Source: an uncultured bacterium
GTDB lineage: Bacteria > Patescibacteriota > JABMPQ01 > CAVVCK01
Length of the DNA stretch: 64,000 nucleotides
Direction: 5' to 3'
Assembly (NCBI GenBank): GCA_963746775.1
Contig: CAVVCK010000001.1
Location: forward strand, 483,151-547,150
In this document: positions 8,418-61,109 of the stretch, one piece after another
Layout: every line of letters starts with the position of its first letter
Position numbering within the stretch: position 1 is the stretch's first letter
Translations under genes and position numbers: made by a program
Notes under the pieces: generated by a model
Databases searched by the model: none
Told to the model about the DNA's origin: nothing
Seen by the model: only the letters and a program-made list of their open reading frames with translations

Positions 8418-9173
8418 TTAAAAACTTTCTACCTTCACTCTAATTAATCCTTCTCCTAGGGAAGCAATTTCTGAAAAAGCGCTATCAGATAAATCAATCA
8501 CTCTGCCAGAAATAAAAGGACCTCTATCAACTATTCTCACTATACAGGATTTATTATTATCCTTATTAGTTACCTTGACCTCATCACCTATTTCAAATTG
8601 ATTCATGGCAGCGGTCATTTCCTGCCCGTTATAATACCAACTAGCTAATCCTTCATATTCCTCTTTAGGAACAATGTCTTCCAAAACTACTATTTTGCTA
8701 TAAGGCAGATGTGTAATTGCTTTGACATAGCCGCTATTACTATCAGCATAGGAAGGTAACTCTATCCAGCCATTTTTATTGCTATCCCAATAATATAAGG
8801 ATTTTCGAGCCTTGCTTTCTGAATTATATTTCAAGGCTATCCAGGAAGGTTTTTTTACAATAATTGGATTATATTGAAGCCCAATCATATCAAAACTATA
8901 GGTATTAGAAACAATTTTCTTGCCTTTTGGTAAAGGATGCTTATCAATATTGATATCCTTAAGCGTCACCTGGACTTCTTGATCAACCTGATTAGGAGTT
9001 ACAGCAAAACGAATATCGTTATTATTATGCGTTACAGTGTAACCTTTAACAATGGTCTGCTTATCTATCCTAAGGTCGGTACTTACACTGCTGGCATCTA
9101 TACTGAAACAAAGAGCAAATAATCCTGAAAAAATAATTGTTAAAATAAAAAGGAGACTTTTAATCTTGGTCAT
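8418..9173 (-). CDS. rlpA: RlpA-like double-psi beta-barrel (septal ring lytic transglycosylase family) secreted protein
   Basis: Signal peptide. C-terminal DPBB signature ASWYYNGQEMTAAMNQFEIGDEVKVTNKDNNKSCIVRIVDRGPF ... IDLSDSAF. Confidence 0.65.
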   Translation of the reverse strand: MTKIKSLLFILTIIFSGLFALCFSIDASSVSTDLRIDKQTIVKGYTVTHNNNDIRFAVTPNQVDQEVQVTLKDINIDKHPLPKGKKIVSNTYSFDMIGLQYNPIIVKKPSWIALKYNSESKARKSLYYWDSNKNGWIELPSYADSNSGYVKAITHLPYSKIVVLEDIVPKEEYEGLASWYYNGQEMTAAMNQFEIGDEVKVTNKDNNKSCIVRIVDRGPFISGRVIDLSDSAFSEIASLGEGLIRVKVESF

Positions 9174-9197
9174 TTTGTGATTTTTTACTTTTTCCTC

Positions 9198-9653
9198 CTA
9201 ATTATTAATTATTTGAAATATTGCTATCCCACAGGCCACGGAAACATTTAAAGATTCTTTCTGGCCTTGCATGGGAATTTCTATTATTCTATCGCACTTA
9301 TTAAGTACTCGGCGAGGCAATCCTTCAACTTCAGCTCCCAGAATTATAGCTATTGGATATTTTGGTTTAAATTTAGAATAATTTAAACTTTCTTTGTTCT
9401 GCTCTAGGGCTACAATTTGAAATCCTTCTCTTTTTAGTTTATCAACAAGTCTTCCTGTTTGTCTATATCCCTCCCAATCTACATAATTTTCAGCACCTAG
9501 GGCCACTTTAGATATTCTGGAATGCGGAGGAATAGGTGTTATTCCACATAAATATATTTTATTAATCCCAGCCCCATCAGCCGTTCTAAATATTGAACCT
9601 ACATTATATCTACTTCTAATATTATGTAAAATTAAAACTATCTTTTTTTTCAT
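9198..9653 (-). CDS. SpoU/TrmH-family RNA 2'-O-methyltransferase
   Basis: SpoU motifs (GSIFRTADGAG; ILGAEVEGL; IPMQGQKESLNVSVACGIAIFQI). Start set at the internal ATG (MKKKIVLIL) because the longer track ORF would overlap tRNA-Cys. Confidence 0.65.
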   Translation of the reverse strand: MKKKIVLILHNIRSRYNVGSIFRTADGAGINKIYLCGITPIPPHSRISKVALGAENYVDWEGYRQTGRLVDKLKREGFQIVALEQNKESLNYSKFKPKYPIAIILGAEVEGLPRRVLNKCDRIIEIPMQGQKESLNVSVACGIAIFQIINN

Positions 9654-9654
9654 A

Positions 9655-9728
9655 TGGAGGCCTGGACCGGACTTGAACCGGTGTACTCGGTTTTGCAGAC
9701 CGATGCGTAACCACTCCGCCACCAGGCC
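9655..9728 (-). tRNA. tRNA-Cys (GCA), CCA encoded
   Basis: Hand-folded: acceptor GGCCTGG/CCAGGCC, anticodon stem-loop TCGGT-CTGCAAA-ACCGA, T-arm ACCGGTTCAAGTCCGGT. Confidence 0.8.
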
Positions 9729-9768
9729 CTTCAATCCGGATATTATAAAAATCTAATTATATTCCTAA

Positions 9769-9839
9769 GCGGGCAAGCAGAATCGAACTGCCGTCTCGTC
9801 CTTGGCAAGGACGCATAATAGCCACTATACGATGCCCGC
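9769..9839 (-). tRNA. tRNA-Gly (GCC)
   Basis: Hand-folded: acceptor GCGGGCA/TGCCCGC, anticodon loop TTGCCAA, T-loop TTCGATT. Confidence 0.8.
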
Positions 9840-9931
9840 CCGGTTAGAAATTTTGGTAAATTAGAGATACTGTTAATTAATATTTTGTAATAATCAACAG
9901 TAGAAGCATTACGAACCAATACTTCTAACCG
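9840..9931. repeat. tRNA-5'-abutting hairpin element with terminal inverted repeats, copy 1
   Basis: Left end CCGGTTAGAAATTTTGG and right end CCAATACTTCTAACCG are inverted. Starts at the first base after the tRNA-Gly 5' end. Same TIR family as 11654..11758 and 30591..30690. Confidence 0.6.
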
Positions 9932-10160
9932 AGCACGCCACTTTGTAGAATATATGAAAAAGTAATAAGAAAAAATATCCTTATTACCTTAAGAGTATAA
10001 CAAAAAAAATTAAAAAGAAAAGCTTTTTAGGTGTATAAATAATTAGACCATTTTATTAAGCTTTACCCTAAAAATATAACTAATTTTACCTTTAGGGTAA
10101 AGGAAAACAAGTGAGAAATCACAAGTTTTCAGGAAGGAGCAAGAAAAGTAAAAAGTGCGC

Positions 10161-10531
10161 TTACGGACCGTTTTCTAATTCACGAAGTTTACCTTCGGCC
10201 CATTTCTTGGCCTTTTTCTCGGAAGAAAAAACTCCCAAGAAACAATCATCTCTACTTATGCTGGTATTTATTTTTACCGAACATGCCCAGCGGTTTTTAC
10301 CATCACAACACTCTACTTTTAACCCTGTTCTGGTTAGCTTGACTAAGAAAGGGGGCATATTCAAGGCTTGCCCTCGACTTATTTCTTTTCCCTCAAGTGG
10401 TCTAGTAAGATCTTTGTGTCGTATTAAGACCAAATAACAAGTAACCTTGAACAACTTTTCTACAGGCAATTGTTCGACAATACTTTGAGCCCTTTTAATC
10501 CACTCTTGAATAGTATTTATGTTTTCCATCA
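10161..10531 (-). CDS. hypothetical protein in a GC-richer segment between tRNA clusters
   Basis: ATGATG start preceded by GAGAGGAGG. No recognisable domain. Local GC is near 45%, above the window background. The antisense ORF 10111..10437 was not chosen. Confidence 0.35.
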
Positions 10532-10616
10532 TCTCCAACCTCCTCTCAATGCCTCGGCTACTGAAGCCAAAGGGCAAATCAAGTCATTATGTGGTATTAA
10601 AACAATTTTGTCAAAA

Positions 10617-10652
10617 ATAAAACCCAAGCTTTATAAGCTTGGGGTAAATTTA
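10617..10652 (-). terminator. intrinsic terminator (CCCAAGCTT-TAT-AAGCTTGGG plus T-run on minus strand)
   Basis: Hairpin followed by a U-tract in the minus-strand sense, downstream of 10852..11292. Confidence 0.5.
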
Positions 10653-10851
10653 AATACAATATATGCACCACATTTGACGTTATCAGAACTTATCTAGTCG
10701 AACACTCCACTGCAGTAGTATTACCTCCTGGCCCTTGGTTAAGCAAAACACTGGATGAAATACTAGAATCTGAATCTGAGTAAATGTCTACACAATACTC
10801 TATTTATTACTAATATATTTAAACATGTAATGCTAATTGAACTCTATTAAG

Positions 10852-11579: not shown

Positions 11580-11654
11580 TGGTGCCGGGGGAGAGAATTG
11601 AACTCTCGACACAAGGATTTTCAGTCCTTTGCTCTACCACTGAGCTACCCCGGC
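11580..11654 (-). tRNA. tRNA-Phe (GAA), CCA encoded
   Basis: Reverse complement GCCGGGGTAGCTCAGTGGTAGAGCAAAGGACTGAAAATCCTTGTGTCGAGAGTTCAATTCTCTCCCCCGGCACCA folds canonically. Confidence 0.85.
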
Positions 11655-11758
11655 CAGTTAGAAGTTTTGGCAATTGACGTTTATACTATTGTTTCTAGTT
11701 TTACAACAATCAACGGTACAGGTTTTGATTACCAATACTTCTAACTGGCCACCGGCCC
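11654..11758. repeat. tRNA-5'-abutting hairpin element with 17-bp terminal inverted repeats, copy 2
   Basis: CCAGTTAGAAGTTTTGG ... CCAATACTTCTAACTGG is a perfect or near-perfect inversion. The left end overlaps the first base of tRNA-Phe. Confidence 0.65.
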
Positions 11759-11790
11759 TAAGTTAATATTATAATTTTTCTTTTCCCTTG

Positions 11791-11867
11791 GTGGGCGATC
11801 GAGGACTCGAACCTCGGACCTCGTCATTATCAGTGACGCGCTCTAACCACCTGAGCTAATCGCCCCC
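11791..11867 (-). tRNA. tRNA-Ile (GAT) in the 16S downstream spacer, CCA encoded
   Basis: Reverse complement GGGCGATTAGCTCAGGTGGTTAGAGCGCGTCACTGATAATGACGAGGTCCGAGGTTCGAGTCCTCGATCGCCCACCA. Confidence 0.8.
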
Positions 11868-12124: not shown

Positions 12125-13630
<1,506 letters not shown>

Positions 13631-13886
13631 AAAAATGATTTGAGAAAATAAATTCTCAAATTATAGAGATTGAGTCTTATGGTTTAATAAATTAAACCAG
13701 ACTCCGAGCTCTAAAAAAATTATAAAGCATGTTACATATCACCAAGTGATACATACATTATTGTTCCTATCGCTTTTCAATTGTTAATGTTCTTGAATCT
13801 CAGTACAAAAAACTACCTTAGATAACCTAAGATATTACAAACTTTTTATACTTAGTTTCAGTATTAATAATTTAATATACTAAATA

Positions 13887-27065: not shown

Positions 27066-28733
27066 GTGTCACAAAAAATAAAGGAAAGAAAAAAAAGAGA
27101 GAAAAAAAATAAAATTATATTTAGTATTAGTGTTTTATTTATTACTATATTATTTATAATTTCAGGAGCTTACTATATTTATGCTAAATTTTTTGCTCCG
27201 CGCAAGATAGAATCATTTTTTCCTAAAGAAATTTCTTCCCTTTTTTTAGTTAAAAGTAATTTTACTACAGACGTAGGTGATAAATTAAAAAAACTTGGTT
27301 TAAAATTTGGAGATGAAAAATATTTTCAAAATTATTTAGAAGATTTAATATTTCCCAGGTTAAGAGATCAAAAATTAAATATTCCGGATGAAAAAGTTTT
27401 TGGTTGGAGGGGTGATTTTGTGGCTGTAGGAAGTATAAAAGTTAGTAATATTGAGAATACCCCTATTTTTGTAATACAAATAAAAAATCCGGCATTATGT
27501 GAAGAATTTTTAAGAACGTTAGAAGAGAACTTAGCTAATCGAGGTTATATTATTAACTCGGAAGAGTTTAGAGACAAAAAAGTTACTACTAACCGAGGCT
27601 TGAGTGATATTTCCTATGCCCTGTACGATAATTATTTGTTAGTTTCTGGTAAGCCAGATGGAGTAAAAAAAATGATTGATACAGCTCACGGTAAATTTGC
27701 TTCCATGGTAGAGGATTCACAGTATTTTAAAATGAAAAAGAAATTGTCTGAAAATGACTCAGTAGTTTTTAGCTATTTTGATCCGCTGGAGCTGGCTAGA
27801 GCTATACCAATTTTAAATCAAAGCAATCTTGATTCTATAGGAAAGCTTGGCATTAATGATTCTAATCTTCGCATGGGCATTACTTTTATTCCTGGCGCAC
27901 AAGGCATTGAAGCTAGGGTTTATAACCGCAATGATTACACTAAAGATATTAAAGGGGTAGGCAGAAATCTTGTTTTCGCTAAAAAAATTCCTTATGATTC
28001 CTTATTATATTTAGAAGGACGCGATATCGAATCGCTGCTAGAAGGTATTATATCAGGACAAGATGATACAGCTGATCCAGAAGCTACTATTTCGGCTTTA
28101 AAGAAATTAGTGGAAATGGAGACGGGTGTTGATTTAGATAAAGACTTATTTCAATATATCAACAAAAATTATGCTTTTTATATGCTTCCCAGTTCTGAAA
28201 AAGAAAGACTGGATTTAACGCTTGCTTTTGAATTATCTAAATCAGAAGAATTTAGTGGAAAAATAAATAAAATAGAAGATGCAGTTTTAAATTTAATCCA
28301 AAAATCATCAATTAAAGAAGAAATGTCAGGCCGGACTTTTACGGACCACAGCTACCAAAATATAAATTATAAATACTTAAATTTACCTGATAGCTGGCGG
28401 ATTGATTTAGTTATTGGACAGATAAATGATTATTTCTTCATAGCTAGTTCAGAAGAAGCTGCTCAAAATGTCATCGACGTTATTTTAGGCAGAATTCCTA
28501 AAGTGCTAGCGGATAGTAGTACTTTTAAGTCTTCTTATGAACTTTCTAAAAACAAGGATTCAGATATTTTCTTTTTTGGAGATATGCAAGAATTTACTAA
28601 GTATTTATCATATAATATGGATTTTAATTATGAAGATTTAGACCAAAAATTTAAAATTCTAGAAACGCTAAATTTGACCAGAGAAGAGAAATCGAGAGAA
28701 AATTATTATAATCTATTTTTAAAAGTAAGATAA
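27066..28733 (+). CDS. N-terminally membrane-anchored large extracytoplasmic protein, hypothetical
   Basis: 555 aa. Basic N-terminus plus a TM helix. Weak paralogy to the next gene (motifs DNYLLVSGKPDG and YKDYLIVSTDENLLEEAIQ). GTG start, so the start is uncertain. Confidence 0.45.
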   Translation: MSQKIKERKKREKKNKIIFSISVLFITILFIISGAYYIYAKFFAPRKIESFFPKEISSLFLVKSNFTTDVGDKLKKLGLKFGDEKYFQNYLEDLIFPRLRDQKLNIPDEKVFGWRGDFVAVGSIKVSNIENTPIFVIQIKNPALCEEFLRTLEENLANRGYIINSEEFRDKKVTTNRGLSDISYALYDNYLLVSGKPDGVKKMIDTAHGKFASMVEDSQYFKMKKKLSENDSVVFSYFDPLELARAIPILNQSNLDSIGKLGINDSNLRMGITFIPGAQGIEARVYNRNDYTKDIKGVGRNLVFAKKIPYDSLLYLEGRDIESLLEGIISGQDDTADPEATISALKKLVEMETGVDLDKDLFQYINKNYAFYMLPSSEKERLDLTLAFELSKSEEFSGKINKIEDAVLNLIQKSSIKEEMSGRTFTDHSYQNINYKYLNLPDSWRIDLVIGQINDYFFIASSEEAAQNVIDVILGRIPKVLADSSTFKSSYELSKNKDSDIFFFGDMQEFTKYLSYNMDFNYEDLDQKFKILETLNLTREEKSRENYYNLFLKVR

Positions 28734-28736
28734 AAT

Positions 28737-30557
28737 ATGGGTAAAATTAATATAAAGATAAGCAAAGACGGAATTAAAAAAATACATTTAGAAAATGTTC
28801 AGCATGGACCAGAATTGTCTGATATTAAAGAAAGCCGAGGTCATAAGAAAATGAATGTTAGCAACCAAGATGCTCCCAGAGTACTGAAAATAAAAGAAAA
28901 AAAGCCTAAAAAAAACGCTAAAAGAAGGTTTAAATTTAAAATAAGTTATTTGATTATTCCTCTTTTGGTAATTATTTTAGGTCTAGGGTTTTATTTTGGC
29001 TATAATTTATTAAAAAATGACAAAGTATTAAAAATTTTGCCTGAAAATACTGTTTTTTATAGTAAAATTGATTTAAAAAAAATTAAAAAAGACTATGTTG
29101 ATGGAAATTTAGGGAAGATTATTGACGCCCTATCTTCAAAAGATGAATTTAAAGAAGAAATTGCTCAAATAGTTAATGATAATATCTTAAATGATTATGG
29201 ATTAAATTTTAGGGCTGATATAGAGGGAGAAATTAAAAATGAAATATCGCTAGCGTCTTTTAAAGACAATAGTAATGAACTTAATTTGCACACAATAATA
29301 GCTTTAGAAGTAAAAAATAAGCAAAAAATAAAAGACATTATTAATAAAAGCGTAGATATTGATTATATTAATAATTATTCCTATGAAGGTTCAGATATTT
29401 ATGAAATTATTTTTAAAAATGAAAAAAATAATTTTTATTATACCTTCTCTAATAATTTTTTAATTTTAGCCAAAGACGATAGGGCGCTAGAAGAAATGCT
29501 AGATGTTGCTAATAAAAAGAAACTATCTCTAGCTAGTTACCAGCCGTTTAAAGATGCCGTGCCGTATGTTTATAGATTAGAAAATAATTATTTTTATACT
29601 AATTTAGCCTCGGTGTCATTTGACAATATAAAGGATCAAGATTTTTTTGGCTTAAAATTAAAAGATTCATTTTTCCTTTATGCTTATCTAAAAAAAATAG
29701 GACAAGCCTCTTTTTATTTAAAACCAGAGAGCAATGGTTTAAAATTATACGGACACACTGCTTATAATGCAGAAGAAAATATGGAAGTTAATATTTCTGA
29801 TTTTGCTATAGATAGAGCATCTTTAGTCTATAATGGCTATAATCTAGCAAAAGATTTTAATGATAATATAAACATATTTAATGAAGATGAAAAAAACAGC
29901 TCTTCTTTAAAAATGCTAGCTAGTAGCCTGCAGACAGAATATAATTTAAATCCAGCAGAAGATATTAGTCCTTTCTTCGAACAGGAAGCTGAAATTTCAG
30001 TTGTTTCAGAGGAAGGAAGAGATGAGTTGGTAGTTGTTCTAAAAGCTCAGGATAATACTGAAAATGAGAAAAGAATAAAGAAACTAGAAAATGCTGCTTC
30101 TCATTATTTTGGTATTTTGTATCCGCAGGAAAGTGAATTTGAATTAGCTGATGGATCGATTGCGCTTGAACTTTTTGCTAATGATGGTGCTTTTCCATTT
30201 GAAGATTTAAAATTAGGTGATATAAAAATAAGAAGCATTGTCAATCCTGGCATTCAGCAACATTATGCCTATGCTTTTTATAAAGATTATTTAATTGTAA
30301 GCACGGATGAGAATCTATTAGAAGAAGCAATACAAACTGAACAAGATAAAAATGGTTTAGCCTACAAACCAGAATTCAATAATCTTATAAATGGACAAAT
30401 AAGTGATAATAATATATTTTATCTAGACCTTATGAAAATATATGATAAAATGGGAACTTCTGATAACGGATTTTTAAATAGATTTAAGAAATTCATTTTA
30501 ACCGAAGAGAATAAGACAAAAGGGATGGATTTTATGGGAACGGTTTCAGTTGAGTAA
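28737..30557 (+). CDS. N-terminally membrane-anchored large extracytoplasmic protein, hypothetical (paralogue of the preceding gene)
   Basis: 606 aa. TM helix YLIIPLLVIILGLGFYFGY. Begins 3 bp after the upstream gene's stop. Confidence 0.45.
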   Translation: MGKINIKISKDGIKKIHLENVQHGPELSDIKESRGHKKMNVSNQDAPRVLKIKEKKPKKNAKRRFKFKISYLIIPLLVIILGLGFYFGYNLLKNDKVLKILPENTVFYSKIDLKKIKKDYVDGNLGKIIDALSSKDEFKEEIAQIVNDNILNDYGLNFRADIEGEIKNEISLASFKDNSNELNLHTIIALEVKNKQKIKDIINKSVDIDYINNYSYEGSDIYEIIFKNEKNNFYYTFSNNFLILAKDDRALEEMLDVANKKKLSLASYQPFKDAVPYVYRLENNYFYTNLASVSFDNIKDQDFFGLKLKDSFFLYAYLKKIGQASFYLKPESNGLKLYGHTAYNAEENMEVNISDFAIDRASLVYNGYNLAKDFNDNINIFNEDEKNSSSLKMLASSLQTEYNLNPAEDISPFFEQEAEISVVSEEGRDELVVVLKAQDNTENEKRIKKLENAASHYFGILYPQESEFELADGSIALELFANDGAFPFEDLKLGDIKIRSIVNPGIQQHYAYAFYKDYLIVSTDENLLEEAIQTEQDKNGLAYKPEFNNLINGQISDNNIFYLDLMKIYDKMGTSDNGFLNRFKKFILTEENKTKGMDFMGTVSVE

Positions 30558-30831: not shown

Positions 30832-31104
30832 ATGTATTATTTATATATACTTTTGTTAAAAAATAAGCAATTATACAAGGGATCAACTAGTGATTTAAAA
30901 CGAAGATTCAATGAACACAAAAACGGCAAAGTTAAATAAACTAAATACAGAAGACCTTTAAAATTAATACATTATGAAGCATATATATTAAAAAGCGATG
31001 CCGAAAGAAGAGAAAGGTTTTTAAAAACAACAGAAGGAAGAAGATTATTAAAACAACAAATAAAAGATATTCTAAATAAACATAGTAAACATACGCCCTC
31101 GTAG
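30832..31104 (+). pseudogene. GIY-YIG nuclease-family small protein gene interrupted by an in-frame TAA
   Basis: Translation MYYLYILLLKNKQLYKGSTSDLKRRFNEHKNGKVK-stop-TKYRRPLKLIHYEAYILKSDAERRERFLKTTEGRRLLKQQIKDILNKHSKH. GIY ... YIG-family core (YxGST ... RR ... EH ... G). The TAA at 30937 sits where the family has Tyr (TAY). The ORF's 3' end overlaps the first 10 nt of tRNA-Arg. Confidence 0.55.
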
Positions 31105-31166
31105 TTCAATGGACAGAACACCAGCCTTCTAAGCTGGTTATGTAGGTTCGATTCCTGCCGAGGGCA
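31095..31166 (+). tRNA. tRNA-Arg (TCT)
   Basis: GCCCTCGTAGTTCAATGGACAGAACACCAGCCTTCTAAGCTGGTTATGTAGGTTCGATTCCTGCCGAGGGCA folds canonically. Confidence 0.8.
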
Positions 31167-31266
31167 AGTTATTATGTTCTAGTTGTTGTAAATGTCAGAA
31201 CTGTTGTAATTGAAAAAATATTTAAAACATCTATAACAATTAGAATTGTTACAACATTTTATGCAG

Positions 31267-31339
31267 GGGCCTCTAGCTCATCTGGTAGAGCGCATCCATG
31301 GCATGGATGAGGTGAGGAGTTCGAGTCTCCTGAGGTCCA
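31267..31339 (+). tRNA. tRNA-Ala (GGC), G3-U70 present
   Basis: GGGCCTCTAGCTCATCTGGTAGAGCGCATCCATGGCATGGATGAGGTGAGGAGTTCGAGTCTCCTGAGGTCCA. Acceptor carries a G-U at 3:70. Confidence 0.85.
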
Positions 31340-31343
31340 TAGT

Positions 31344-31415
31344 GGTGACTATAGTTCAATGGTAGAACACTAGTCTGTGGCACTAGTTACGAGGGTTCGA
31401 TTCCCTCTAGTCACC
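31344..31415 (+). tRNA. tRNA-His (GTG) with encoded G-1
   Basis: GGTGACTATAGTTCAATGGTAGAACACTAGTCTGTGGCACTAGTTACGAGGGTTCGATTCCCTCTAGTCACC. The extra 5' G pairs with the discriminator C. Confidence 0.85.
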
Positions 31416-31464
31416 TTGGTGATATATAAAAATATTTTTTTTAAAGTAATACTTAATTCAAAAA

Positions 31465-31495: not shown

Positions 31496-31657
31496 ATTCT
31501 TTTAATGATTCTAAAAATACTAATAATTAAAAATAAGCAACCTCTAAAATGGGAAAAGGCGCCATTCATTGAACGTGTACGTTCTCCGAAATGACGCCTT
31601 GAGATGTGCAAATGAGCTTGGGTCGAGTTGACCCGGGATGGGAAAAGAACGGTAGGT

Positions 31658-32920
31658 CTAGAAAAGCTGGTCAAGGATGACTCCCAGTCGGTCGCGATTG
31701 ACCAAACCTTCCTTGACTAGGGTGTTAATGGAAGGAATTACCCTATCAGCCTTTTTTGACCGGCAGATCGGAGCGCCAGCAGTCTCCGGAAGAATAGGAA
31801 CAACTTCCATCTGTCCAAACCGCTGGTTGATCCCCTCGATATCCTCAAGCGACCAGGTGTGACTGGGCTTGCCGGTCATGGCGAACGCGTTAATAGCCCT
31901 GCAGATCATATGCATCATGCACTGTTCTGCCCAGCGTCCGTTACAACCGTCAACCCTCGAACCTGGAATGACCACTTGGCTAGTAGTGTGGCCGAAGCCA
32001 TTGAGGTTCCTCCCCTCGATTCCGAAGTTGATGATCGTCTCCAACACGTAGCTAGTGGCGAGTGGGATCCGCAGGAAGTCTTCAGCCCGGATGATCCGTT
32101 CGCCCGTGAGCATCCAGGTTAGGCGGAGCAGGCTGGGCTGGATCTGTCGAATAAAAGCGGAAACTGCTGGGTCGGGGTGAAAGGCAGCGATACTCTCCAA
32201 CCCAACTCGTGCGGCGTAGACTGCTTCGTTGCCGCGATCCACTTGACAGCCCAACACATGATTGTGCCGATGCGACGCTACCACTAGCGGGTAGGTCAAA
32301 AAACGCGCCCCATTATAGGAACGAACATCAATAAGCTCGGAGTCGTGCATCATAATGCATGCATCCTCGTAGATCGTGCCACGCTCCATCATCGCCTGAA
32401 CGATGGCCAAGCCAACCATGATGGGAATGCCCTTGCCCACAACATTTTGACGCTGAAGACTAAGAAGCTGGAAGAGTTCGGGACTGACGGATTGATCAAG
32501 AACGTGCTGTACATCGATGACCGGAACCTCCCAACGCCTGACCTCAACAACAGCTTCTTCACCAGAACGATCATTTAAAACAATAACGTTTTGGCGCGGA
32601 ATCTGGCAGTCGTTCAACAGGTAGTCCAAAACCTCCCGGGGCACGAATTCGGGCTCACCGCCCTGCTCGTGCATCGGGATCAGAACCACGATTTTGCCAC
32701 TTTGAAGTATATTGTCAACATCTTCTTTCGCCTGGTGGATTCCAACCTCACCAGGATCGTAGAGTCCCGCTTCCATTTCCCGGCAAAACTCGGAGGCAAT
32801 CTTCTCGTTGTCATTACAGAACAGCCGCAAAGCACGCTCTCTGTCCACGCCCCTCGTTCGTTCTTTAGCAGTTTCACCACCAGTCGCACTACCCAGTCCC
32901 ACAGTACCAAACCGTTCCAT
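31658..32920 (-). CDS. mannosyl-3-phosphoglycerate synthase-like (GT55-type) glycosyltransferase encoded in a high-GC island
   Basis: 420 aa. Remembered MpgS blocks: ERFG near the N-terminus; VVLIPMHEQ ... VIVLNDRSGEE (compare VVVPMKNE ... IILVSNSRRE); GKGIPIMVGLAIVQAM (compare GKAEGMVLALLLAAM); TGERIIRAED (compare TGNAGEHAMT). The canonical DAD motif is not obvious. GC is about 52% against a window average near 30%. SD AAGGAGAGG upstream. Confidence 0.5.
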   Translation of the reverse strand: MERFGTVGLGSATGGETAKERTRGVDRERALRLFCNDNEKIASEFCREMEAGLYDPGEVGIHQAKEDVDNILQSGKIVVLIPMHEQGGEPEFVPREVLDYLLNDCQIPRQNVIVLNDRSGEEAVVEVRRWEVPVIDVQHVLDQSVSPELFQLLSLQRQNVVGKGIPIMVGLAIVQAMMERGTIYEDACIMMHDSELIDVRSYNGARFLTYPLVVASHRHNHVLGCQVDRGNEAVYAARVGLESIAAFHPDPAVSAFIRQIQPSLLRLTWMLTGERIIRAEDFLRIPLATSYVLETIINFGIEGRNLNGFGHTTSQVVIPGSRVDGCNGRWAEQCMMHMICRAINAFAMTGKPSHTWSLEDIEGINQRFGQMEVVPILPETAGAPICRSKKADRVIPSINTLVKEGLVNRDRLGVILDQLF

Positions 32921-33031
32921 AGCCTCTCCTTGAGACCCATCGAGTCTCTCGTTCCCCCTTGGTTAATTAAAAAAGGTGCTTTCTGATTCAAAAAAGAAGG
33001 CAAATTTTACCTCCTTTTTCGAATCTAAAAG

Positions 33032-34228
33032 CTATGAAATTTTAAGGAAATTAAAGCTGGTCCTTGCTTGATATAGCATCTCCGCAGTTAGAAGATTCCA
33101 ACTGACAAATCTCGGTGCACATAAAGGTTTTCCAGAATCCGCATGGTAATTCTCGTGCATACCGCCTGTTTTTTTAATATCTTGCAAACATAAATTAGTA
33201 ATTTTTTTGGCTAACATTTTTGCTTCTTTCCTAAAACCATAATTTAACAAAATATGCAGGCAAAAATAATTAGCAATGGGCCAAATAGGTCCCTGCCAAT
33301 TAGAGCAAGGCTTAATGATAGCCTTGTTATTATAATCAGGATCATCATAGGCTAGCGTCCTTACGCCATATTTTGACCAAAGCTTTTTCGGATTTAACAT
33401 ATATTTTCTAATCATTTCTATCCCCTTCTCTTCTGGCAATAACTTTTCCCATAAGGGAATAAAATTAGAATAAGTATGCCTTTTAATTAATTTTCCATCT
33501 TTAGTATCCAAATTATAATAACTTTTATCATTCTCATCCCATAAATATTTATTGATATTTCTTTTTATTTTATGAGCTTTTTCTCTATATATTTTTTCTT
33601 TCTCGGATTTGCCTAAATTGCAAGCAATTAAGCTTAGACATTTATATTCACGATACAAGAAAGTATTAAGATCTGCACCAATAATGGTTTTTTTGGGGTA
33701 TGGCGCTACAGCTACATTATTATCTGCTCCACATTCCATTCCGTTATACCACATAGCCAGGTCATATTTTTTGCTCCACATATATCTTTCGCGGTAAGTA
33801 GCCGCTTTTTCTAATTTATCAAAATATTTCTCAATCCAAGTAAAATCTTCTAAATTTTTAGCGGCAAAATAAACTTGTTGTACTAAAAAAGGTTTTACAT
33901 GATATAGCCGCTTATCTCTGCCTTTGGGTGTAACTAATCCAGGGGTAAAGCCTGTTTTATGATTAACACAATTCAAATAATTTAAGGCACAGTTCTTCAT
34001 ATAAATAGCTTCCGAAGGAATCTCAGAGGCCAGAGCTACACCAATAAAAAAAGAATCCCAGTCCCACTGTTCCTGGTAAGGTCCGCAAGGGACGAGATAA
34101 TCATATTTTAGAGCACCCTTGGCCTTCTTTTTAACCTCTGATCTATACGAGAAAAAGTGTTTTTTAAGCTGTTCTTCTGTAGTCATAAAGTATTTTTTTC
34201 TAAATAATATTTTATCATACAGTATCAT
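33032..34228 (-). CDS. (alpha/alpha)6-barrel glycoside hydrolase, GH63-like (mannosyl-/glucosylglycerate hydrolase-like)
   Basis: About 399 aa. Motif YLVPCGPYQEQWDWDSFF and the overall length suggest a GH63/GH37-type catalytic barrel. Native AT-rich composition. Start is uncertain (ATG at 34228 or internal MTTEEQ). Confidence 0.4.
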   Translation of the reverse strand: MILYDKILFRKKYFMTTEEQLKKHFFSYRSEVKKKAKGALKYDYLVPCGPYQEQWDWDSFFIGVALASEIPSEAIYMKNCALNYLNCVNHKTGFTPGLVTPKGRDKRLYHVKPFLVQQVYFAAKNLEDFTWIEKYFDKLEKAATYRERYMWSKKYDLAMWYNGMECGADNNVAVAPYPKKTIIGADLNTFLYREYKCLSLIACNLGKSEKEKIYREKAHKIKRNINKYLWDENDKSYYNLDTKDGKLIKRHTYSNFIPLWEKLLPEEKGIEMIRKYMLNPKKLWSKYGVRTLAYDDPDYNNKAIIKPCSNWQGPIWPIANYFCLHILLNYGFRKEAKMLAKKITNLCLQDIKKTGGMHENYHADSGKPLCAPRFVSWNLLTAEMLYQARTSFNFLKIS

Positions 34229-34425
34229 ACACACACATTTTACTTATTTTACTAAATTATCTCTATAGAGGTCAATACATTTTTTGTGCATAAAAATAGC
34301 CAATTTTATTTTGGCTATTTTAAAATAAAATTTAACCATCTAAACAAAATACCCCAATGTTTTTAAGAAACATTGGGGTATTTAAACTAAATCTATTTTA
34401 TTAATTTCTATATACTATTAAAAAA

Positions 34426-35448
34426 CTATTTTTCTTGTTTCCCAATATACTCAACCAATTTCATCATATTAGAGGCATAACCCCATTCATTATCATACCA
34501 AGCAATAATTTTGATTAGTCTCTTATCTAAAACATCCGTGGAGAGGGCATCAACTGTAGAAGCCATAGCATTGCCTCTGTAATCAATCGAAACTAAAGGT
34601 AGATCACTAACAGCTAATACGCCTTTCATTTCTCCTCTTGCTGCTTCTCTAAAGGTTTTATTTAAACTTTCAATATCTGCATCTTTTTCAATTTCACATA
34701 CTAAGTCTACTACTGAGACAGTAATAGTAGGTACGCGCAAAGAAATGCCTTTCAATTTACCGGCCATTTCTGGAATTACTTTGGCTACTGCTTCACTGGC
34801 ACCAGTGGTGGTTGGAATGATAGATTCACAAGCAGCTCGGGATCTTCTTAAATCATCTTTCTTATGAGGCGCATCATGTAAATTTTGGTCATTAGTGTAA
34901 GAGTGAATTGTATTCATAAATCCGTGTTTTATGCCATAAGCTTTATGTAATACTTTACAGATAGGGGCTAAACAAGTAGTGGTGCAAGAAGCAGCTGATA
35001 TAATCTTATCTTTTTCTGGATCATAATCTTTTTCATTAATGCCAGCAATTATAGTCTTAATATTATCCCCTTTACCAGGAGCGGAAATTAATACTCTTTT
35101 AGCTCCTGCAGTCAGATGTTTATCGCAATCTTCATATTTTCTAAAAGCACCGGTAGCCTCGATTACTAAATCAACACCTAAATCTTTCCAAGGAAGTTCT
35201 GCCGGATCATCTATATGCAGCATTTTAATTCTCTTTCCATCAATAATAAAATCTTTATCATCAACTTTTATTTCTTTATCCCAAACACCATAAATTGAGT
35301 CATATTTAATCAAATGGGTATAAACATCAATGGAAGAGCGGCTATTGGCGGCTACTAAGTTAATATTAGGATTTTCTATTGCCTGCCTAAAGGCTGTTCG
35401 GCCAATTCTGCCTAGGCCATTGATAGCTACGTTTAATTGTTTAGACAT
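34426..35448 (-). CDS. gap: type I glyceraldehyde-3-phosphate dehydrogenase
   Basis: NGLGRIGR Rossmann motif. Active-site SCTTTCLAP. 340 aa. Confidence 0.9.
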   Translation of the reverse strand: MSKQLNVAINGLGRIGRTAFRQAIENPNINLVAANSRSSIDVYTHLIKYDSIYGVWDKEIKVDDKDFIIDGKRIKMLHIDDPAELPWKDLGVDLVIEATGAFRKYEDCDKHLTAGAKRVLISAPGKGDNIKTIIAGINEKDYDPEKDKIISAASCTTTCLAPICKVLHKAYGIKHGFMNTIHSYTNDQNLHDAPHKKDDLRRSRAACESIIPTTTGASEAVAKVIPEMAGKLKGISLRVPTITVSVVDLVCEIEKDADIESLNKTFREAARGEMKGVLAVSDLPLVSIDYRGNAMASTVDALSTDVLDKRLIKIIAWYDNEWGYASNMMKLVEYIGKQEK

Positions 35449-35523
35449 TTTTTTAAATTAAATAAAATATTTTCCCGACTTTAGTCGGAAATTATTATCC
35501 TGCTAAAGCAGGGTTAATAACTT

Positions 35524-36600
35524 TTAAACAATTTCTATTTCCTTACACAAATAAACATCCTGTACTGCATTAATAATCTCTACCCCTTCTTCCATTGGTC
35601 TTTGAAAAGCTTTGCGACCCAATATCAATCCACTGCCACCTGCCCTTTTATTAACTGTGGCTGTATAGATGGCATCATGTAAATCATTGCCGCCGCTTGA
35701 TCCGCCAGAATTAATCAAACCAATTCTGCCCATATAGCAATTGGCTATTTGATAACGACACAAATCAATAGGATGATCGCTGGCTAAATCTGTATACATT
35801 TTCTCATCGTATTTACCATATTTTTCAGTTTTATTCATATATTCATAGCCGCCGTTTAATTCCGGAAGTTTTTGTTTAATAATATCTGCTCCTATAGTTA
35901 CACCTAAATAATTTGCTTGTCCAGTCAGATCTGCAGAGGTGTGATAATTATGTTCATCATCGGCTTTAAAAGCATTATTACGCAAATAACACCAAAGAAT
36001 AGTAAACATACCCATTTCATGAGCTTCTGCAAAAGCTTTACTTACTTCCTGAATCTGCCTCTTGGATTCTTCTGAGCCAAAATAGATGGTAGCACCTACT
36101 CCTAGAGCTCCCATATTATGAGCTTCTTTGGGGGAAGTAAACATTATCTGGTCATAGGTGTTAGGATATCTTAAAATTTCATTATGATTAAGTTTAACAA
36201 TAAAAGGAATTTTATCAGCATATTTTTTAGACATCATGGCTAATATACCGTAAGTTGAAGCTACTCCATTACAACCAGCCTCAATAGCTAATTTAATTAT
36301 ATTTTCTGGATCAAAATAATCAGGATTTTTAGCAAAGCTTGCTCCAGCTGAATGCTCAACCCCCTGATCTACGGGTAAAATAGAATAGTAGCCAGTGCCA
36401 GAGAGTCTTCCGTGATCTCTTAATTTCTTTAAATTTTCTTTAACTTTATCGCTTCTATTAGATAAATTAAAAACATTATCAATATGATTTGGTCCTGGAA
36501 CATGCAAGCGTTCTTTTTTTATTTTTGGATCATTAAAATCTAATAATTTTTCGGAATCATTTTCTAAAATTTTTTGAATTGATGAAAAATCATAGGACAT
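35524..36600 (-). CDS. fbaB: class I fructose-bisphosphate aldolase (FbaB/DhnA type)
   Basis: Near-colinear with remembered E. coli FbaB: [50 protein letters not shown] ... KLNHNE ... [11 protein letters not shown] ... [10 protein letters not shown] ... [17 protein letters not shown]. Confidence 0.85.
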
Positions 36601-36737
36601 AATTTTGATATATTAAAATTTATATATTATTGAACACAAGTGATTACTAATTCCCAATTTCCAATAGGATGACAAATACTAAATTATTAATTTGACATTA
36701 GAAATTTTATTGGAGATCGGATATTAATTATTGGTAA

Positions 36738-37724
36738 TTAAATATTATAATGTCTTGTCTCAATATACCTAATAGTTTTTTCTTGCGCTCTCATACTCAT
36801 AGAAAAGGTCTTAGCACCATAAGGGGTAAAATCAACACCTCTTAAAAATGATCCGGTTGATACACCTGTAGCAATAAACATACAATCATTGCCTTGGACT
36901 AAATCATCCTGAGTCATTTTTTTATTTAAATCAGATACGCCCATTTTTATAGCTTTTTCTTTTAAACTATCGGTATCTTTGCCTTTTAATTCCCCAATAT
37001 CAAATACTAATCTGCCTTGCATTTCTCCACCTAAACATTTTATAGCAGCGGCTGTAATTACACCTTCTGGCGCTGCACCATAGCCTAGTAAAATATCAAT
37101 ATCAGAATCTTCCAAACAAGAGGCTACGCCGCCTGATACATCGCCATCTGATATTAAAGTAAGCCTTGCCCCTTCTTGGCGTACTTCTTCAATTAATTTA
37201 GCATTATAATCTCTCTCTAGCATTATTACCATTAAATCCCTAACATTCATACTCTTTGCTTGTGCGACTGCTTTTAGATTATCGGCTACTGATTTATCTA
37301 GATCTATCATACCTTTAGCTTCTGGTCCGACAGCGATTTTTTGCATATAGACATCTGGGGCGTGAAGCATAGTACCTTGTGGGGCAGCAGCCATAACGGC
37401 AATAGCATTAGGTCGGCCATAAGCGACACTATTAGTACACTCTAGTGGATCAACAGCAATATCTATTGCATCACCGCTGCCTTTGCCAACTTCCTCACCT
37501 ATAAATAGCATTGGAGCTTCGTCTCGCTCGCCTTCGCCAATTACAATTCTGCCTTTCATTTCCAGGTTGTTAAAATATTTTCTCATCTCTTCGGTAGCAG
37601 CACTATCAGCCGCATCTTTATCACCTCTGCCATAAAACCTAGCAGAAGCAATAGCTGCTGCCTCGGTTACTTTCACAAAATCTAGAGCTAAATTTTTATC
37701 CATTATTTTATTATTAAAAAACAT
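36738..37724 (-). CDS. glpX: class II fructose-1,6-bisphosphatase GlpX
   Basis: LALDFVKVTEAAAIASARFYGRGDKDAADSAA ... typical GlpX N-terminus and length. Alternative start at 37703 (MDKNLAL). Confidence 0.85.
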   Translation of the reverse strand: MFFNNKIMDKNLALDFVKVTEAAAIASARFYGRGDKDAADSAATEEMRKYFNNLEMKGRIVIGEGERDEAPMLFIGEEVGKGSGDAIDIAVDPLECTNSVAYGRPNAIAVMAAAPQGTMLHAPDVYMQKIAVGPEAKGMIDLDKSVADNLKAVAQAKSMNVRDLMVIMLERDYNAKLIEEVRQEGARLTLISDGDVSGGVASCLEDSDIDILLGYGAAPEGVITAAAIKCLGGEMQGRLVFDIGELKGKDTDSLKEKAIKMGVSDLNKKMTQDDLVQGNDCMFIATGVSTGSFLRGVDFTPYGAKTFSMSMRAQEKTIRYIETRHYNI

Positions 37725-37872
37725 TAAAACTTAAAAACAATAAAAACAAAATATTATAAATAGGCATTATTTCTTTGTATTTTGTTTTTATGTTCTAGTG
37801 CTTTATTGTTCTTGTGAATTCACATACCATCATACGATATTAAACGTTTTGGTCAATTATCTTTGTGGATAA

Positions 37873-38601
37873 TTATTTACTCGGCCATTCTTTCTTAGCT
37901 CGTTCGTAGGCCTGTGGTGTACCTATATCATACCATTCACCATCAAAATGATAACCGTGCAAACTTCCTTCCATAGCTAATTTGGGCAAAACATCTCTTT
38001 CAAATTTGGAATATTTTTTATTCTTAGGTACTAATTTTAAAACTTTAGGGTCAATGACATAAATACCAGCTGAAATAACCCTAGATAAATTTGGCTTTCT
38101 TTCAGGCTTTTCTAAAAATCCTAAGATTTTACTTCCTCTTAATTTTACTACTCCATAGCCTTCTGGATTTTGAACAGAAGTTAGGGCGAGGGTTACGGCA
38201 CTATTTTTCTCTTCATGAAAAGCTAGTAAATCTTTCAAATCAACATTAGCTAGTGTGTCTCCATAAAGCATTAGGAATGATTCATCGGATAAATATTTTC
38301 TAGCTTTATAGATAGCATTTCCAGTGCCTATTCTATCATTGCATTTAACATAAGTAATTTTTACTCCAAATTTTTCTCCATTTTTAAAATAATTTTTTAT
38401 GGCATTACCCTTGTAGCCTATTAATATAATAATATCTCTAATTCCATTTTCTTTTAATTGATTAATAATGTGCTCTAAGACTGGTTTTCCCTGGACTTTC
38501 AACATAGTTTTGGGTGCATCTATGGTTAGAGATTTAACCTTACTTCCTCTTGTACCAGCCAAAATATAGGCTTTTTTAATGCCAGAGCGTAATCCTTTCA
38601 T
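37873..38601 (-). CDS. sugar-1-phosphate nucleotidyltransferase (NTP_transferase domain; mannose-1-P guanylyltransferase/glucose-1-P thymidylyltransferase-like)
   Basis: N-terminal AGTRGSK ... loop, PKxML ... KP motif. Single-domain, 242 aa. Confidence 0.6.
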   Translation of the reverse strand: MKGLRSGIKKAYILAGTRGSKVKSLTIDAPKTMLKVQGKPVLEHIINQLKENGIRDIIILIGYKGNAIKNYFKNGEKFGVKITYVKCNDRIGTGNAIYKARKYLSDESFLMLYGDTLANVDLKDLLAFHEEKNSAVTLALTSVQNPEGYGVVKLRGSKILGFLEKPERKPNLSRVISAGIYVIDPKVLKLVPKNKKYSKFERDVLPKLAMEGSLHGYHFDGEWYDIGTPQAYERAKKEWPSK

Positions 38602-58750: not shown

Positions 58751-60685
58751 ATGAATATAACCATTCTCTCCAAAAGATTAAATATGCCCGTCCCAGAGCT
58801 TATGAAGAAAATTGCGAGCTTCGGCTTTAAATTACGCAATAATACTAAGAAAATAAGTGATAGAAAAGCCAAAGAGATTATTAAGAAAGTTGAGCGGGAG
58901 AGAAGAGAAGCTGCTAATAAAAAAGAAGAAGTATATGAAGTACCAGAGAAAATAGCTCTATCTTCTTCAGTGACAGTTAAAGAATTTGCTGAGAAGCTTA
59001 ATATGCCCGTAACCAAAGTTATTCCGGAACTGATGAAAAATGGCATTATGGCCACCATCAATGAAGAGATTGATTATGAAACAGCCGCCATTATAGCAGA
59101 GGAGATGGGTGTAAAGGTAGAAGAACACAGAGAAGAAAAAGATATTTTAAAAGAAGAAGGAGTTAGAAAGAAAATTTTAAAACAATTAGCAGGTGAGAAA
59201 GCAACAGATTTAAAAAGTAGACCTCCGGTTGTCTGCGTCTTGGGTCATGTTGATCATGGGAAAACAACCCTGCTTGATGCTATTCGAGAAACCAATATAG
59301 TTGAAGGTGAGTCAGGTGGTATTACTCAGCATATTGGTGCTTATCAAGCAAAGATTAAAGGTAAAAATATTACTTTCCTAGATACTCCAGGACACGAAGC
59401 GTTTAAGGCTATGCGTGAGCGAGGTGCTAAGGTAACTGATATCGCAATTTTGGTGGTAGCTGCTGATGATAGCGTTCAGCCTCAAACTGCTGAGGCTATA
59501 GCACATATCAAGAAAGCCAAGGTCCCGATGGTGGTAGCTATTAACAAAATAGATAAACCAGAGGCAGATGTTGAGAAAACCAAAAAACAATTGGCGGATC
59601 ACGATGTTCTAACTGAAGAATGGGGTGGAGATACTGTTTGTGTGGAAATATCCGCTAAACAAAAGATAAATCTAGATAAATTATTGGAATCAATATTACT
59701 TGTTTCTGAAATGGAAGAACTAAAAGCAAGTCCCGAAACTCGCGCTGTGGGAACTATTATTGAATCTAATATGGATGCTAATCAAGGACCAGTGGCGACA
59801 GTATTGGTACAAAACGGAACTTTGAAACTTAATGATCCGGTGACAGTTTTTGGCATTATAGGAACTATTAAATCAATGGAAAATTTTAAAGGTGAGAAGA
59901 TAGAGTATGCCGAGCCTTCTACGCCAGTTAGAATATTAGGCTTAGAAAAAGTTCCTGAAGTCGGAGATATTTTACAAGTAGAAGATAGTAGAGAGGAAGC
60001 TAGAAAAAAAATAGGCAGTTTTAAAAAAATAAAAAATATTTCTAAAAAATATAAAAATGATAAAAATAGCAAAGTAAAAACTTTAAACATTATCTTAACT
60101 GCTGATGTGCAAGGATCATTGGAAGCAATAATGTCTGAATTCAATAAAATTGAGATTGAGGGTGTTAACTTACAAATTGTGAATTTCAAAGTAGGAAAAA
60201 TTAGTGAGTCTGATGTAATGATGGCTTCATCTTCTAACGCTATGATTATTGGTTTTAATAATAGCATTACTTCAGTAGCTTCTAGAATGGCTGAAGATAG
60301 AAAGGTTGATGTTAAAATTTACAAAATAATTTATGAGATGCTGGATGAATTAAAAGCAAAGCTAGAGAGTATGGTAGAAATAGAACTAGAATTAGCTAAA
60401 ATAGGTAAATTGGAAGTATTGGCAATCTTTAGAACAGAAAAAGATAAAAGAATTATAGGGGGGAAAGTGGTTTCAGGTAAAATGAAAAGAGGAGTAGTAG
60501 CTAAAATAGTAAGAGATGACCAAGTGATTGGTGAAGGTAAATTATCTAATTTGCAATTAGGCAAAAAAGATACTGCCGAAGTTGATAGTGGAAAAGAATG
60601 CGGAATTACCTTTACTGGGCATGTTAAAATTAAAGAAGGAGACGTGTTGGAGGCTTATGAAGAGAGGGAAGTAAAACGTAAATAG
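58751..60685 (+). CDS. infB: translation initiation factor IF-2
   Basis: G-domain [31 protein letters not shown]. 644 aa. Confidence 0.9.
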
Positions 60686-60766
60686 TAATTATACATTAGA
60701 CATTAGGAAGAACATATTTGTATCTCCCCTTTACTAATTGCTAATGTCTATTGTTCAGTCATAAAA

Positions 60767-61102
60767 ATGTCAAATAATAGAATTAGTAAATTAAATAGTC
60801 TTGTTAAAGATGAACTTTCTAAAATAATTCAAAGAAAGGTTGATTTTGAAGAGGGTGTTTTGGTTACAATTTACAAAGTAGAGGTTTCGATTGATATTGC
60901 TCATGCCAATATACATATCAGTGTAATTCCTGAGGAAAAAGAAAAAAAAGCCTTTGAAGTACTTCAAGAAAATATTTTTCAAATACAACAGGAATTAAAT
61001 AAAAAACTAGTCTTAAAGATAATTCCTAAAATAAGATTTGTGTTGGATGATTCTATAAAAAGAGCAGCTGCTATGGAGGAATTGTTTAAACAAGTATCTT
61101 AA
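60767..61102 (+). CDS. rbfA: ribosome-binding factor A
   Basis: 111 aa. Motif VTIYKVEVSIDIAHANIHISV typical of RbfA. Immediately downstream of infB. Confidence 0.75.
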   Translation: MSNNRISKLNSLVKDELSKIIQRKVDFEEGVLVTIYKVEVSIDIAHANIHISVIPEEKEKKAFEVLQENIFQIQQELNKKLVLKIIPKIRFVLDDSIKRAAAMEELFKQVS

Positions 61103-61109
61103 TGTTGGA

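Follow-up and report, generated by a model that had tools for sequence, protein, structure and literature searches.

A conserved gene pair for a putative GpgS/MpgS-like glycosyltransferase and a GH63-like hydrolase in Patescibacteria and other phyla

The DNA analysed here is a stretch of 64,000 nucleotides from a contig of an uncultured patescibacterium (CAVVCK010000001.1, positions 483,151 to 547,150), referred to as the window. It is low in GC (~31%) and contains a bacterial 16S rRNA gene and many tRNA genes, and the closest relatives of its genes are found in metagenome-assembled genomes of Patescibacteria. An earlier note, made from the sequence alone, had described a minus-strand cluster at 31658-38601 in the order sugar-1-phosphate nucleotidyltransferase, glpX, fructose-bisphosphate aldolase, gap, an (α/α)6-barrel hydrolase and an MpgS-like gene, hereafter gene X, and had proposed it as a module for the synthesis and turnover of a glyceryl glycoside. 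All six open reading frames (ORFs) are present, on that strand and in that order. Herein we report that the last two of them, the hydrolase gene and X, form a conserved and functionally coupled pair, which probably makes and breaks a small α-hexosyl compound. At its core are a conserved, unannotated MpgS/GpgS-like synthase and, paired with it, a GH63-like hydrolase.

The identities proposed for the three central metabolic genes were borne out, each product scoring above the cut-off of the respective model. The glpX gene (36738..37724) encodes a GlpX-type class II fructose-1,6-bisphosphatase (FBPase; PF03320, 3.7e-130; TIGR00330, 379 bits, cut-off 259). The next gene, fbaB (35524..36600), encodes a class I fructose-bisphosphate aldolase (FBA) of the DeoC/LacD family that is FbaB-like (NF006707, 603 bits against 327), and gap (34426..35448) encodes a type I glyceraldehyde-3-phosphate dehydrogenase (GAPDH; TIGR01534, 416 bits against 367) with the domains Gp_dh_N and Gp_dh_C. 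The first gene of the row (37873..38601) encodes a sugar-1-phosphate nucleotidyltransferase of 242 aa (Pfam NTP_transferase, PF00483, 3e-43). Its product falls below every NCBIfam cut-off (best, the mannose-1-phosphate guanylyltransferase model man1P_GTase_Rv, 168 against 440 bits; then Arch_glmU, 164 against 292; rmlA_long, 147 against 320), and its closest PDB chains are mixed, with a UTP-glucose-1-phosphate uridylyltransferase (8x7s) as the closest, followed by glucose-1-phosphate cytidylyltransferase and mannose-1-phosphate guanylyltransferases. These scores permit no choice among ManC, RmlA and GalU, and the suggestion that this enzyme supplies GDP-mannose, together with the mannosyl reading of the locus, is unsupported.

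The signals between the genes divide the row. Directly 3' of gap lies a hairpin with a perfect 16-bp stem and a U-run, resembling an intrinsic terminator (34342..34383, minus strand; dG -21 kcal/mol, z = -5.85 against shuffles). It is followed, 5' of the hydrolase gene, by a predicted sigma-70-like promoter (34246..34275; TTGACC, an 18-nt spacer and TAAAAT, 10 of 12 matches in a consensus scan), which is weak evidence, the promoter consensus matches across the region being overall not above those in shuffles. The 111-nt spacer between the hydrolase gene and X (32921..33031) contains no terminator in the terminator scan, and a Shine-Dalgarno-like AGGAG stands in it, 6 nt 5' of the X start. About 58 nt past the stop codon of X, a long imperfect hairpin followed by UUUUCCCAUUUU, a U-run (31545..31600; dG -23.8 kcal/mol, z = -4.0), is a candidate terminator of the hydrolase-X unit. 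Collectively, the hairpin after gap, the promoter-like site, the AGGAG in the spacer and the hairpin and U-run after X suggest that the hydrolase gene and X are a transcription unit of their own, apart from gap. With a strong terminator hairpin between gap and the hydrolase gene, it is unlikely that all six form a single operon.

The coupling of the two genes was evident from their neighbourhoods in other genomes. All close X homologues stand directly after the same hydrolase gene, including a copy only 31% identical that lies in a wholly different neighbourhood (locus L010). GTDB species-representative genomes were retrieved with the hydrolase alone, giving 46 loci, and an X-family gene adjoins the hydrolase gene in 23 of them: 10 in the order hydrolase-X, 10 in the order X-hydrolase, 2 convergent and 1 with X between two hydrolase genes. 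The paired loci span Kerfeld-, Buchanan-, Wildermuth-, Roizman- and Peregrinibacteria, Microgenomates, Dadabacteria, Limisphaerales and Bdellovibrionota; the Aminicenantes and Acidobacteriota copies among the 46 are without an adjoining X. X is the sole strongly recurrent neighbour of the hydrolase. Since the genomes were retrieved without the use of X, its adjacency in half of the loci supports a functional coupling of the two genes, and we take the pair, not the row of six, as the unit. The coupling of synthase and hydrolase within the proposed module thus stands.

Gene X (31658..32920) encodes a protein of 420 aa that on its own matches no Pfam or NCBIfam family and no PDB sequence. A word-indexed search through 5.8 billion proteins found only five relatives, and an exhaustive profile search extended the family to 154 cluster representatives (about 150 clusters at the 50% identity level). 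The family is Pfam-dark throughout; the Pfam family Osmo_MPGsynth (PF09488) has no match to X alone and weak matches, at 0.003, to 2 of 62 family members. An alignment of these 62 sequences was used for a profile search of the PDB and for an AlphaFold2 model. The top profile matches were exclusively MpgS and GpgS chains (3f1y, MpgS, 1.6e-6; 4y6n, GpgS, 1e-5; 2zu7, MpgS, 8e-5). The model reached a pLDDT of 94.5 (modelling with 5 sequences had given 47 and was unusable), and in a Foldseek comparison of the model with the PDB the best 50 matches were all GpgS or MpgS (E 3e-11 to 2e-8, target TM ~0.7). Profile and model thus assign X to the GT-A glycosyltransferases (GTs) as a remote but genuine relative of MpgS and GpgS, outside GT55 and GT81 as these are modelled now. 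The label MpgS-like is therefore right at the level of the superfamily, to which the 62-sequence profile and the structure model lead, and could not be recovered from one sequence taken alone. X does code for protein: in a comparison with a homologue of 81% identity, in which synonymous sites were saturated, the ratio of nonsynonymous to synonymous substitution (dN/dS) was 0.056. The alternative that this GC-rich 1.4 kb is a structured RNA was rejected on the same ratio and on the lack of any Rfam match at the gathering score or at E<=1.

The active site of X was mapped through local HMMER alignments. The GKG of X (residues 162-164) aligned on SGKGEGM of the Pyrococcus horikoshii MpgS, MMHD193-S-E195-L on VFIDSDL of the M. 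hassiacum GpgS, and LTGE...SY291VLE294T on LSGEY...GYGVEI. Across the 62 sequences, K163, D193, Y291 and E294 are either invariant or conserved in no fewer than 90%. In these retaining glycosyltransferases, Asp134-Lys114-Glu232 (Mycobacterium tuberculosis GpgS numbering) is the sole strictly conserved feature of the beta face (PMC2581804). The motif alignments indicate that this network is kept in X, as K163 (GKG), D193 (HDSE) and E294 (SYVLET), so that the MpgS-like protein appears to retain the catalytic residues of its relatives. A further loop, G-R229-N-N231-E, in which R229 is invariant and N231 near-invariant, resembles by motif only the G-R-V-T187-E of GpgS, where the carboxylate of 3-phosphoglycerate (3-PGA) is bound by the main chain of Val186 and by Thr187 (PMC2581804). 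At its N-terminus, X has a helical extension of ~70 residues.

Several variants of the architecture occur in the family. The distant members P0093, P0111, P0133 and P0149 have an N-terminal serine hydroxymethyltransferase fusion. Forms of ~800 aa (P0069, P0075 and P0080) carry a Pfam-dark N-terminal half, and one such gene lies between two hydrolase copies (L053, 4988-7432). A fused phosphatase domain was looked for in the longer proteins and none was found. The gene call for the X homologue at L003 (5863-6978) gives no more than 231 aa, corresponding to the C-terminal half, and a 371-aa ORF is open upstream; this copy may be disrupted or mis-started.

The hydrolase was confirmed as an (α/α)6-barrel enzyme, as had been proposed, and belongs to the GH63/GH37 clan, but its start at 34228 was not confirmed. 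The frame is open up to 34234, and the most likely start, which agrees with that of all homologues, is the ATG at 34186, giving a product of 384 aa (33032..34186; MTTEEQ...). Its best Pfam match is MGH1-like_GH (PF22422; 113.9 bits, cut-off 27), and Trehalase (94), GH63 (71) and GDE_C (29) score lower; the E-values of the first three are 1.6e-32, 1.1e-26 and 8.6e-20, respectively. By best match it is therefore neither a trehalase nor a debranching enzyme, and MGH1-like is also the best-scoring family in its homologues. A profile of 32 hydrolase sequences matched in the PDB the GH63 processing glucosidase I (6e-20), YgjK (3e-17) and trehalases (2e-16). Against the NCBIfam model of glucosylglycerate hydrolase (NF047898), the hydrolase scores 28 bits with a cut-off of 550. 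The catalytic acid D155 (GADNN) and base E345 (HENY; 384-aa numbering) are invariant in the 32 sequences and align to the SG(L/M)DD and (Y/Q)ENY motifs of GH63 enzymes, including glucosidase I and YgjK.

The tyrosine-tryptophan-tryptophan-aspartate motif noticed earlier is real. Y37-x3-W41-x-W43-D44 is invariant in the 32 homologues and has identical spacing and a near-identical position to Tyr36/Trp40/Trp42/Asp43 of the glucosylglycerate hydrolase MhGgH, which bind both the sugar and the glycerate part of the substrate (PMC6608630). The catalytic residues of MhGgH are Asp182 and Glu419, and its substrate residues are Tyr36, Trp40, Trp42, Asp43, Tyr88, Gln115, Arg216, Tyr222, Tyr375 and Trp376 (PMC6608630); W297 of the hydrolase matches Trp376. 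The protein is a bare (α/α)6 barrel without a β-sandwich domain, and it represents a distinct subfamily of the GH63/GH37 clan with no orthologue among the characterised enzymes.

The wider neighbourhood of the pair is variable. The exact six-gene order is found only in the close relatives L001, L003 and L009, and the order alone is therefore inherited synteny. Near the pair, 7 loci have NTP_transferase genes (at five relative positions), 4 have hexokinase genes, 3-4 have ROK glucokinase-like kinase genes and 4 have genes for TrmB sugar regulators. At L029 (5962-8142), the hydrolase is fused to a hexokinase (MGH1-like_GH with Hexokinase_1/2), from which it follows that the product of hydrolysis would be a hexose that is phosphorylated at once. 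The genes of lower glycolysis and gluconeogenesis, to which the earlier note had linked the cluster, recur near the pair as non-orthologous enzymes. The gene order is hydrolase-X-gap-apgM at L018 (gap and apgM at 8605-10844), apgM encoding a cofactor-independent phosphoglycerate mutase, and X-hydrolase::hexokinase-glutamate dehydrogenase-class II FBA-like-class I FBPase-phosphoglycerate kinase at L029; L001 and L009 have a class II FBA against the class I FBA and GlpX of the window. This recurrence with non-homologous isoenzymes in three unrelated contexts is modest independent support for tying the pair to the axis of hexose phosphate and 3-PGA. Also seen as neighbours of the pair were genes for a sucrose-phosphorylase-family enzyme in a Limisphaerales genome (L037, 7131-8591; TIGR03852, 534 bits) and for an archaeal-type phosphoenolpyruvate carboxylase at L015 (8910-10421).

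The closest known system is the mycobacterial glucosylglycerate cycle of GpgS (GT81), GpgP and GgH (GH63). It shares with the pair a retaining GT-A enzyme with the Lys-Asp-Glu network and an inverting GH63-type hydrolase with the Tyr/Trp/Trp/Asp motif, and in it the synthesis and hydrolysis of one α-glycoside keep a regulated pool (PMC2581804, PMC5381378, PMC6608630). Unlike in the mycobacterial system, the synthase and hydrolase genes are adjacent here and no phosphatase gene lies in the window; X is ~100 residues longer than GT81 enzymes, and the hydrolase (384 aa against 446 aa for GgH) is by profile nearer to glucosidase I and YgjK. With the MpgS (GT55)/MpgP and MgH (GH63) enzymes of Thermus, Pyrococcus and Rubrobacter, X shares its structural neighbourhood (2zu7, 2wvl and 3f1y are among its top matches), and the best Pfam family of the hydrolase, MGH1-like, is named after MgH; no evidence of a GDP-mannose donor for X was found, however, nor an MpgP in the window. 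The mannosylglycerate synthase MGS of Rhodothermus marinus (GT78), also of the retaining GT-A type, attaches the sugar to D-glycerate in a single step, a route that would explain the absent phosphatase, and the shared acceptor-binding loop is described in PMC2581804; however, no GT78 structure is among the top 50 fold matches of X. The closest solved sequences to the hydrolase, GH63 YgjK, processing α-glucosidase I and the GH37 trehalases, share its catalytic Asp and Glu motifs. These enzymes have an N-terminal β-sandwich domain and act on oligosaccharides, whereas the hydrolase is a bare barrel like MgH and GgH and carries their N-terminal Y-x3-W-x-W-D motif.

A make-and-break cycle for an α-hexosyl compound is well supported for the pair, and we propose the following form of it. 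X would be a metal-dependent retaining GT-A enzyme of the GpgS/MpgS lineage that moves an α-hexose (glucose or mannose) from a nucleoside diphosphate (NDP)-sugar to a small acceptor, most likely a carboxylate of the glycerate/3-PGA type, and the inverting GH63-like hydrolase would cleave the resulting α-glycoside and free the hexose. In other genomes, the neighbouring hexokinase and ROK kinases would recapture this hexose and the nearby nucleotidyltransferase would re-activate it; in the window, the FBPase, aldolase and GAPDH encoded beside the pair could supply hexose phosphate and the C3 acid. By analogy with mycobacterial glucosylglycerate turnover, the small intracellular glycoside turned over in this way may serve as a compatible solute or carbon reserve. 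A retaining glycosyltransferase acting on an α-NDP-sugar yields an α-glycoside, and to our knowledge all characterised GH63 and GH37 enzymes hydrolyse α-glycosides (PMC6608630), so the stereochemistry of the two steps is coherent. The analysis shows which fold and family X has and that its catalytic network is retained, places the hydrolase in its family with both catalytic residues, and shows that the two genes are coupled across genomes; the acceptor, the sugar, the phosphorylated intermediate with its phosphatase and the physiological role are inferred. The cycle in this form, with an acceptor of the glycerate/3-PGA type, has in our judgement an even chance of being correct.

A number of observations weigh against this cycle. 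The identity of X to solved GpgS and MpgS is only 13-18%, and the curated GT55 and GT81 models are not matched by X; ten X-family proteins of the other clade likewise match no family. The metal motif of X is DxE where GpgS has DxD, the second acid of D193-S-E195 (family consensus HD[AS]E) being a glutamate. In addition, R322-V-D324-G-C-N327 resembles R256-A-H258-R-N260 of GpgS, so that the His258 of the metal-ligating loop is probably replaced by Asp324, as judged by motif and secondary-structure position only. As for the hydrolase, the characterised glyceryl glycoside hydrolases rank lower in its profile search (Tt8MGH, 1e-10; MhGgH, 5e-4), and Tyr375 of MhGgH, which contacts glycerate, corresponds to an invariant Asn296. 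The G-x-G-T-R motif at the N-terminus of the nucleotidyltransferase looks degenerate. No glycerate kinase is among the recurrent neighbours of the pair, and no ORF with a DxDxT or RHG motif, as expected of an MpgP/GpgP-type phosphatase of the haloacid dehalogenase (HAD) or histidine phosphatase type, was found in the window, as the earlier note had already remarked for MpgP. HAD genes accompany the pair in only two loci.

In those two loci, L012 (6296-7327) and L013 (10359-11258), a HAD-IIB (Hydrolase_3) phosphatase gene with a DLDGT motif stands two genes after X, within a larger GC-rich stretch; at its N-terminus the product matches the MPGP family only weakly (29 bits, cut-off 165), and a phmmer search with the L012 protein found nothing in the window. 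The missing phosphatase may reflect a single-step route like that of the Rhodothermus MGS, or the enzyme may be encoded elsewhere in the genome.

X also stands out by its composition. Its GC content is 53% and its GC at third codon positions (GC3) is 0.61, compared with 0.222 +/- 0.032 in 41 other ORFs of the window (maximum 0.294; z = 12), and the edges of this GC island coincide with the ORF. In genomes otherwise AT-rich or of moderate composition, a similar island is found at X in nearly every locus of the clade with the order hydrolase-X: GC3 is 0.958 at L015 (7373-8677; against 0.314 +/- 0.039, z = 16), 0.905 at L013 (7371-8816), 0.897 at L016 (1892-3157), 0.845 at L012 (3353-4807), 0.839 at L014 (7310-8725) and 0.834 at L021 (7269-8507). 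The adjoining hydrolase gene is host-like in composition, and the effect is absent from the clade with the order X-hydrolase. X also diverges far faster than the hydrolase (40% against 83% identity between L001 and L009, and 23% against 75% between L012 and L013), and its identity groups still broadly mirror those of the hydrolase. In groups such as L012/L014/L015, the hydrolases are ~70% identical and synonymous sites are saturated, yet the GC3 of X stays at 0.84-0.96, which excludes neutral vertical descent of X there.

One explanation of the island may be that X has repeatedly been replaced, always at this locus, by copies from high-GC donors that are not among the sampled genomes. Alternatively, selection acting on this gene or biased gene conversion may keep its GC high. 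Parsimony counts of strong-to-weak against weak-to-strong changes in X were 62:48; under amelioration ~1.8:1 would be expected by our own estimate, so that this comparison has little power. In all 13 loci compared, the predicted folding of the X mRNA is more stable than that of synonymous shuffles (mean z ~ -2.6), against ~0 for the hydrolase. GC-rich neighbour genes in L012 and L013 show the same effect, which is thus not specific to X. A broader proposal would be that X founds an undescribed glycosyltransferase family, that its pairing with the hydrolase is a new glycoside solute or reserve cycle in ultra-small Patescibacteria and some other phyla, and that its high GC is held by gene-specific selection or biased conversion and not by recent transfer; as a whole, we regard this as tentative and rather doubtful. 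If it were true, an island confined to one gene would outlast speciation events, and it might control expression by way of mRNA structure or rare codons. A gene-specific GC island across many lineages is in any case an unusual signal in molecular evolution, and either recurrent replacement or selection on composition would be noteworthy.

The main rival to a glycerate-type product is that the pair handles a different α-glucoside, either a disaccharide (kojibiose-, nigerose- or trehalose-like) or another small-molecule glycoside, with X sharing only the fold of GpgS and MpgS. The ranking of glucosidase I, YgjK and the trehalases ahead of MgH and GgH in the hydrolase profile search would fit this, as would the asparagine in place of Tyr375 and the lack of a phosphatase or glycerate kinase consistently near the pair. 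At L031, moreover, a trehalase-like paralogue and a galactokinase stand beside the pair, and the serine hydroxymethyltransferase fusions of distant X-family members hint at other acceptors. On the other hand, all PDB structural neighbours of X use 3-PGA as acceptor, and the known disaccharide synthases OtsA and TreT are GT-B enzymes. The loop with R229 and N231 would, by its likeness to the carboxylate-binding loop of GpgS, also favour a glycerate-type acceptor, as do the Tyr/Trp/Trp/Asp motif shared with MgH and GgH, which includes the glycerate contacts Tyr36 and Trp40, and the recurrence near the pair of gap, pgk and apgM, whose products act close to 3-PGA. A different glucoside is accordingly possible and, on balance, unlikely.

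A distinct issue is whether the metabolic genes belong to the system at all, or whether the six-gene row is an accident of inherited synteny in which only the hydrolase gene and X belong together, while gap, fbaB, glpX and the gene for the nucleotidyltransferase are housekeeping neighbours that play no dedicated part. The restriction of the full order to L001, L003 and L009, the quite different neighbours of the pair at L010 and in most GTDB loci, and the terminator hairpin and promoter-like site between gap and the hydrolase gene all speak for such an accident; in addition, such small genomes have one copy of each glycolytic gene, which therefore cannot be dedicated to the pair. It is countered by the recurrence of glycolytic and gluconeogenic genes in unrelated arrangements with non-homologous isoenzymes (L018 and L029) and of NTP_transferase genes at varying positions in 7 loci. 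We consider accidental synteny a serious possibility that falls a little short of even. The composition of X raises the further possibility of a recent foreign import, weakly expressed or in decay, that has not acquired a fixed function in this host and stands only incidentally next to the hydrolase gene. Its deviant GC3, its fast divergence and the short L003 copy could be read in this way. Import is largely refuted, however, by purifying selection (dN/dS 0.056) and the conserved adjacency, the position beside the hydrolase gene being kept in >20 lineages; the catalytic residues are invariant, and the start codon is preceded by a good Shine-Dalgarno sequence. We regard it as very improbable.

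Patescibacteria (CPR, the candidate phyla radiation) are thought to be minimal and mostly fermentative in their metabolism. In our literature search, no paper tied a glycosylglycerate-type solute or a dedicated glycoside cycle to them. If the proposed cycle is real and is connected to hexose kinases, to sugar activation and to gluconeogenesis, these bacteria would use a small glycoside to buffer carbon or to withstand osmotic and nutrient stress, and the pair would define a new branch of the GpgS/MpgS enzyme lineage.

Several features of the surrounding window were also recorded. Genes for tRNA-Arg (TCT), tRNA-Ala (GGC) and tRNA-His (GTG) lie directly after X (31095-31416). The genes infB-rbfA-DHH-DAC come after X in L001, L003 and L009; the window has at 58751-63159, on the other strand and ~26 kb from X, four ORFs of 644, 111, 323 and 265 aa, equated with these genes solely from their lengths and order. 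A rearrangement with a breakpoint at the end of the hydrolase-X pair would fit this. A complete 16S rRNA gene lies at 12127-13636, followed by tRNA-Ile and tRNA-Phe genes (11580-11865); since no 23S or 5S rRNA gene is found anywhere in the window, the rRNA genes appear to be unlinked. Finally, two adjoining large ORFs on the plus strand (27066-30557) encode Lys/Asn-rich products of 555 and 606 aa with an N-terminal hydrophobic segment.

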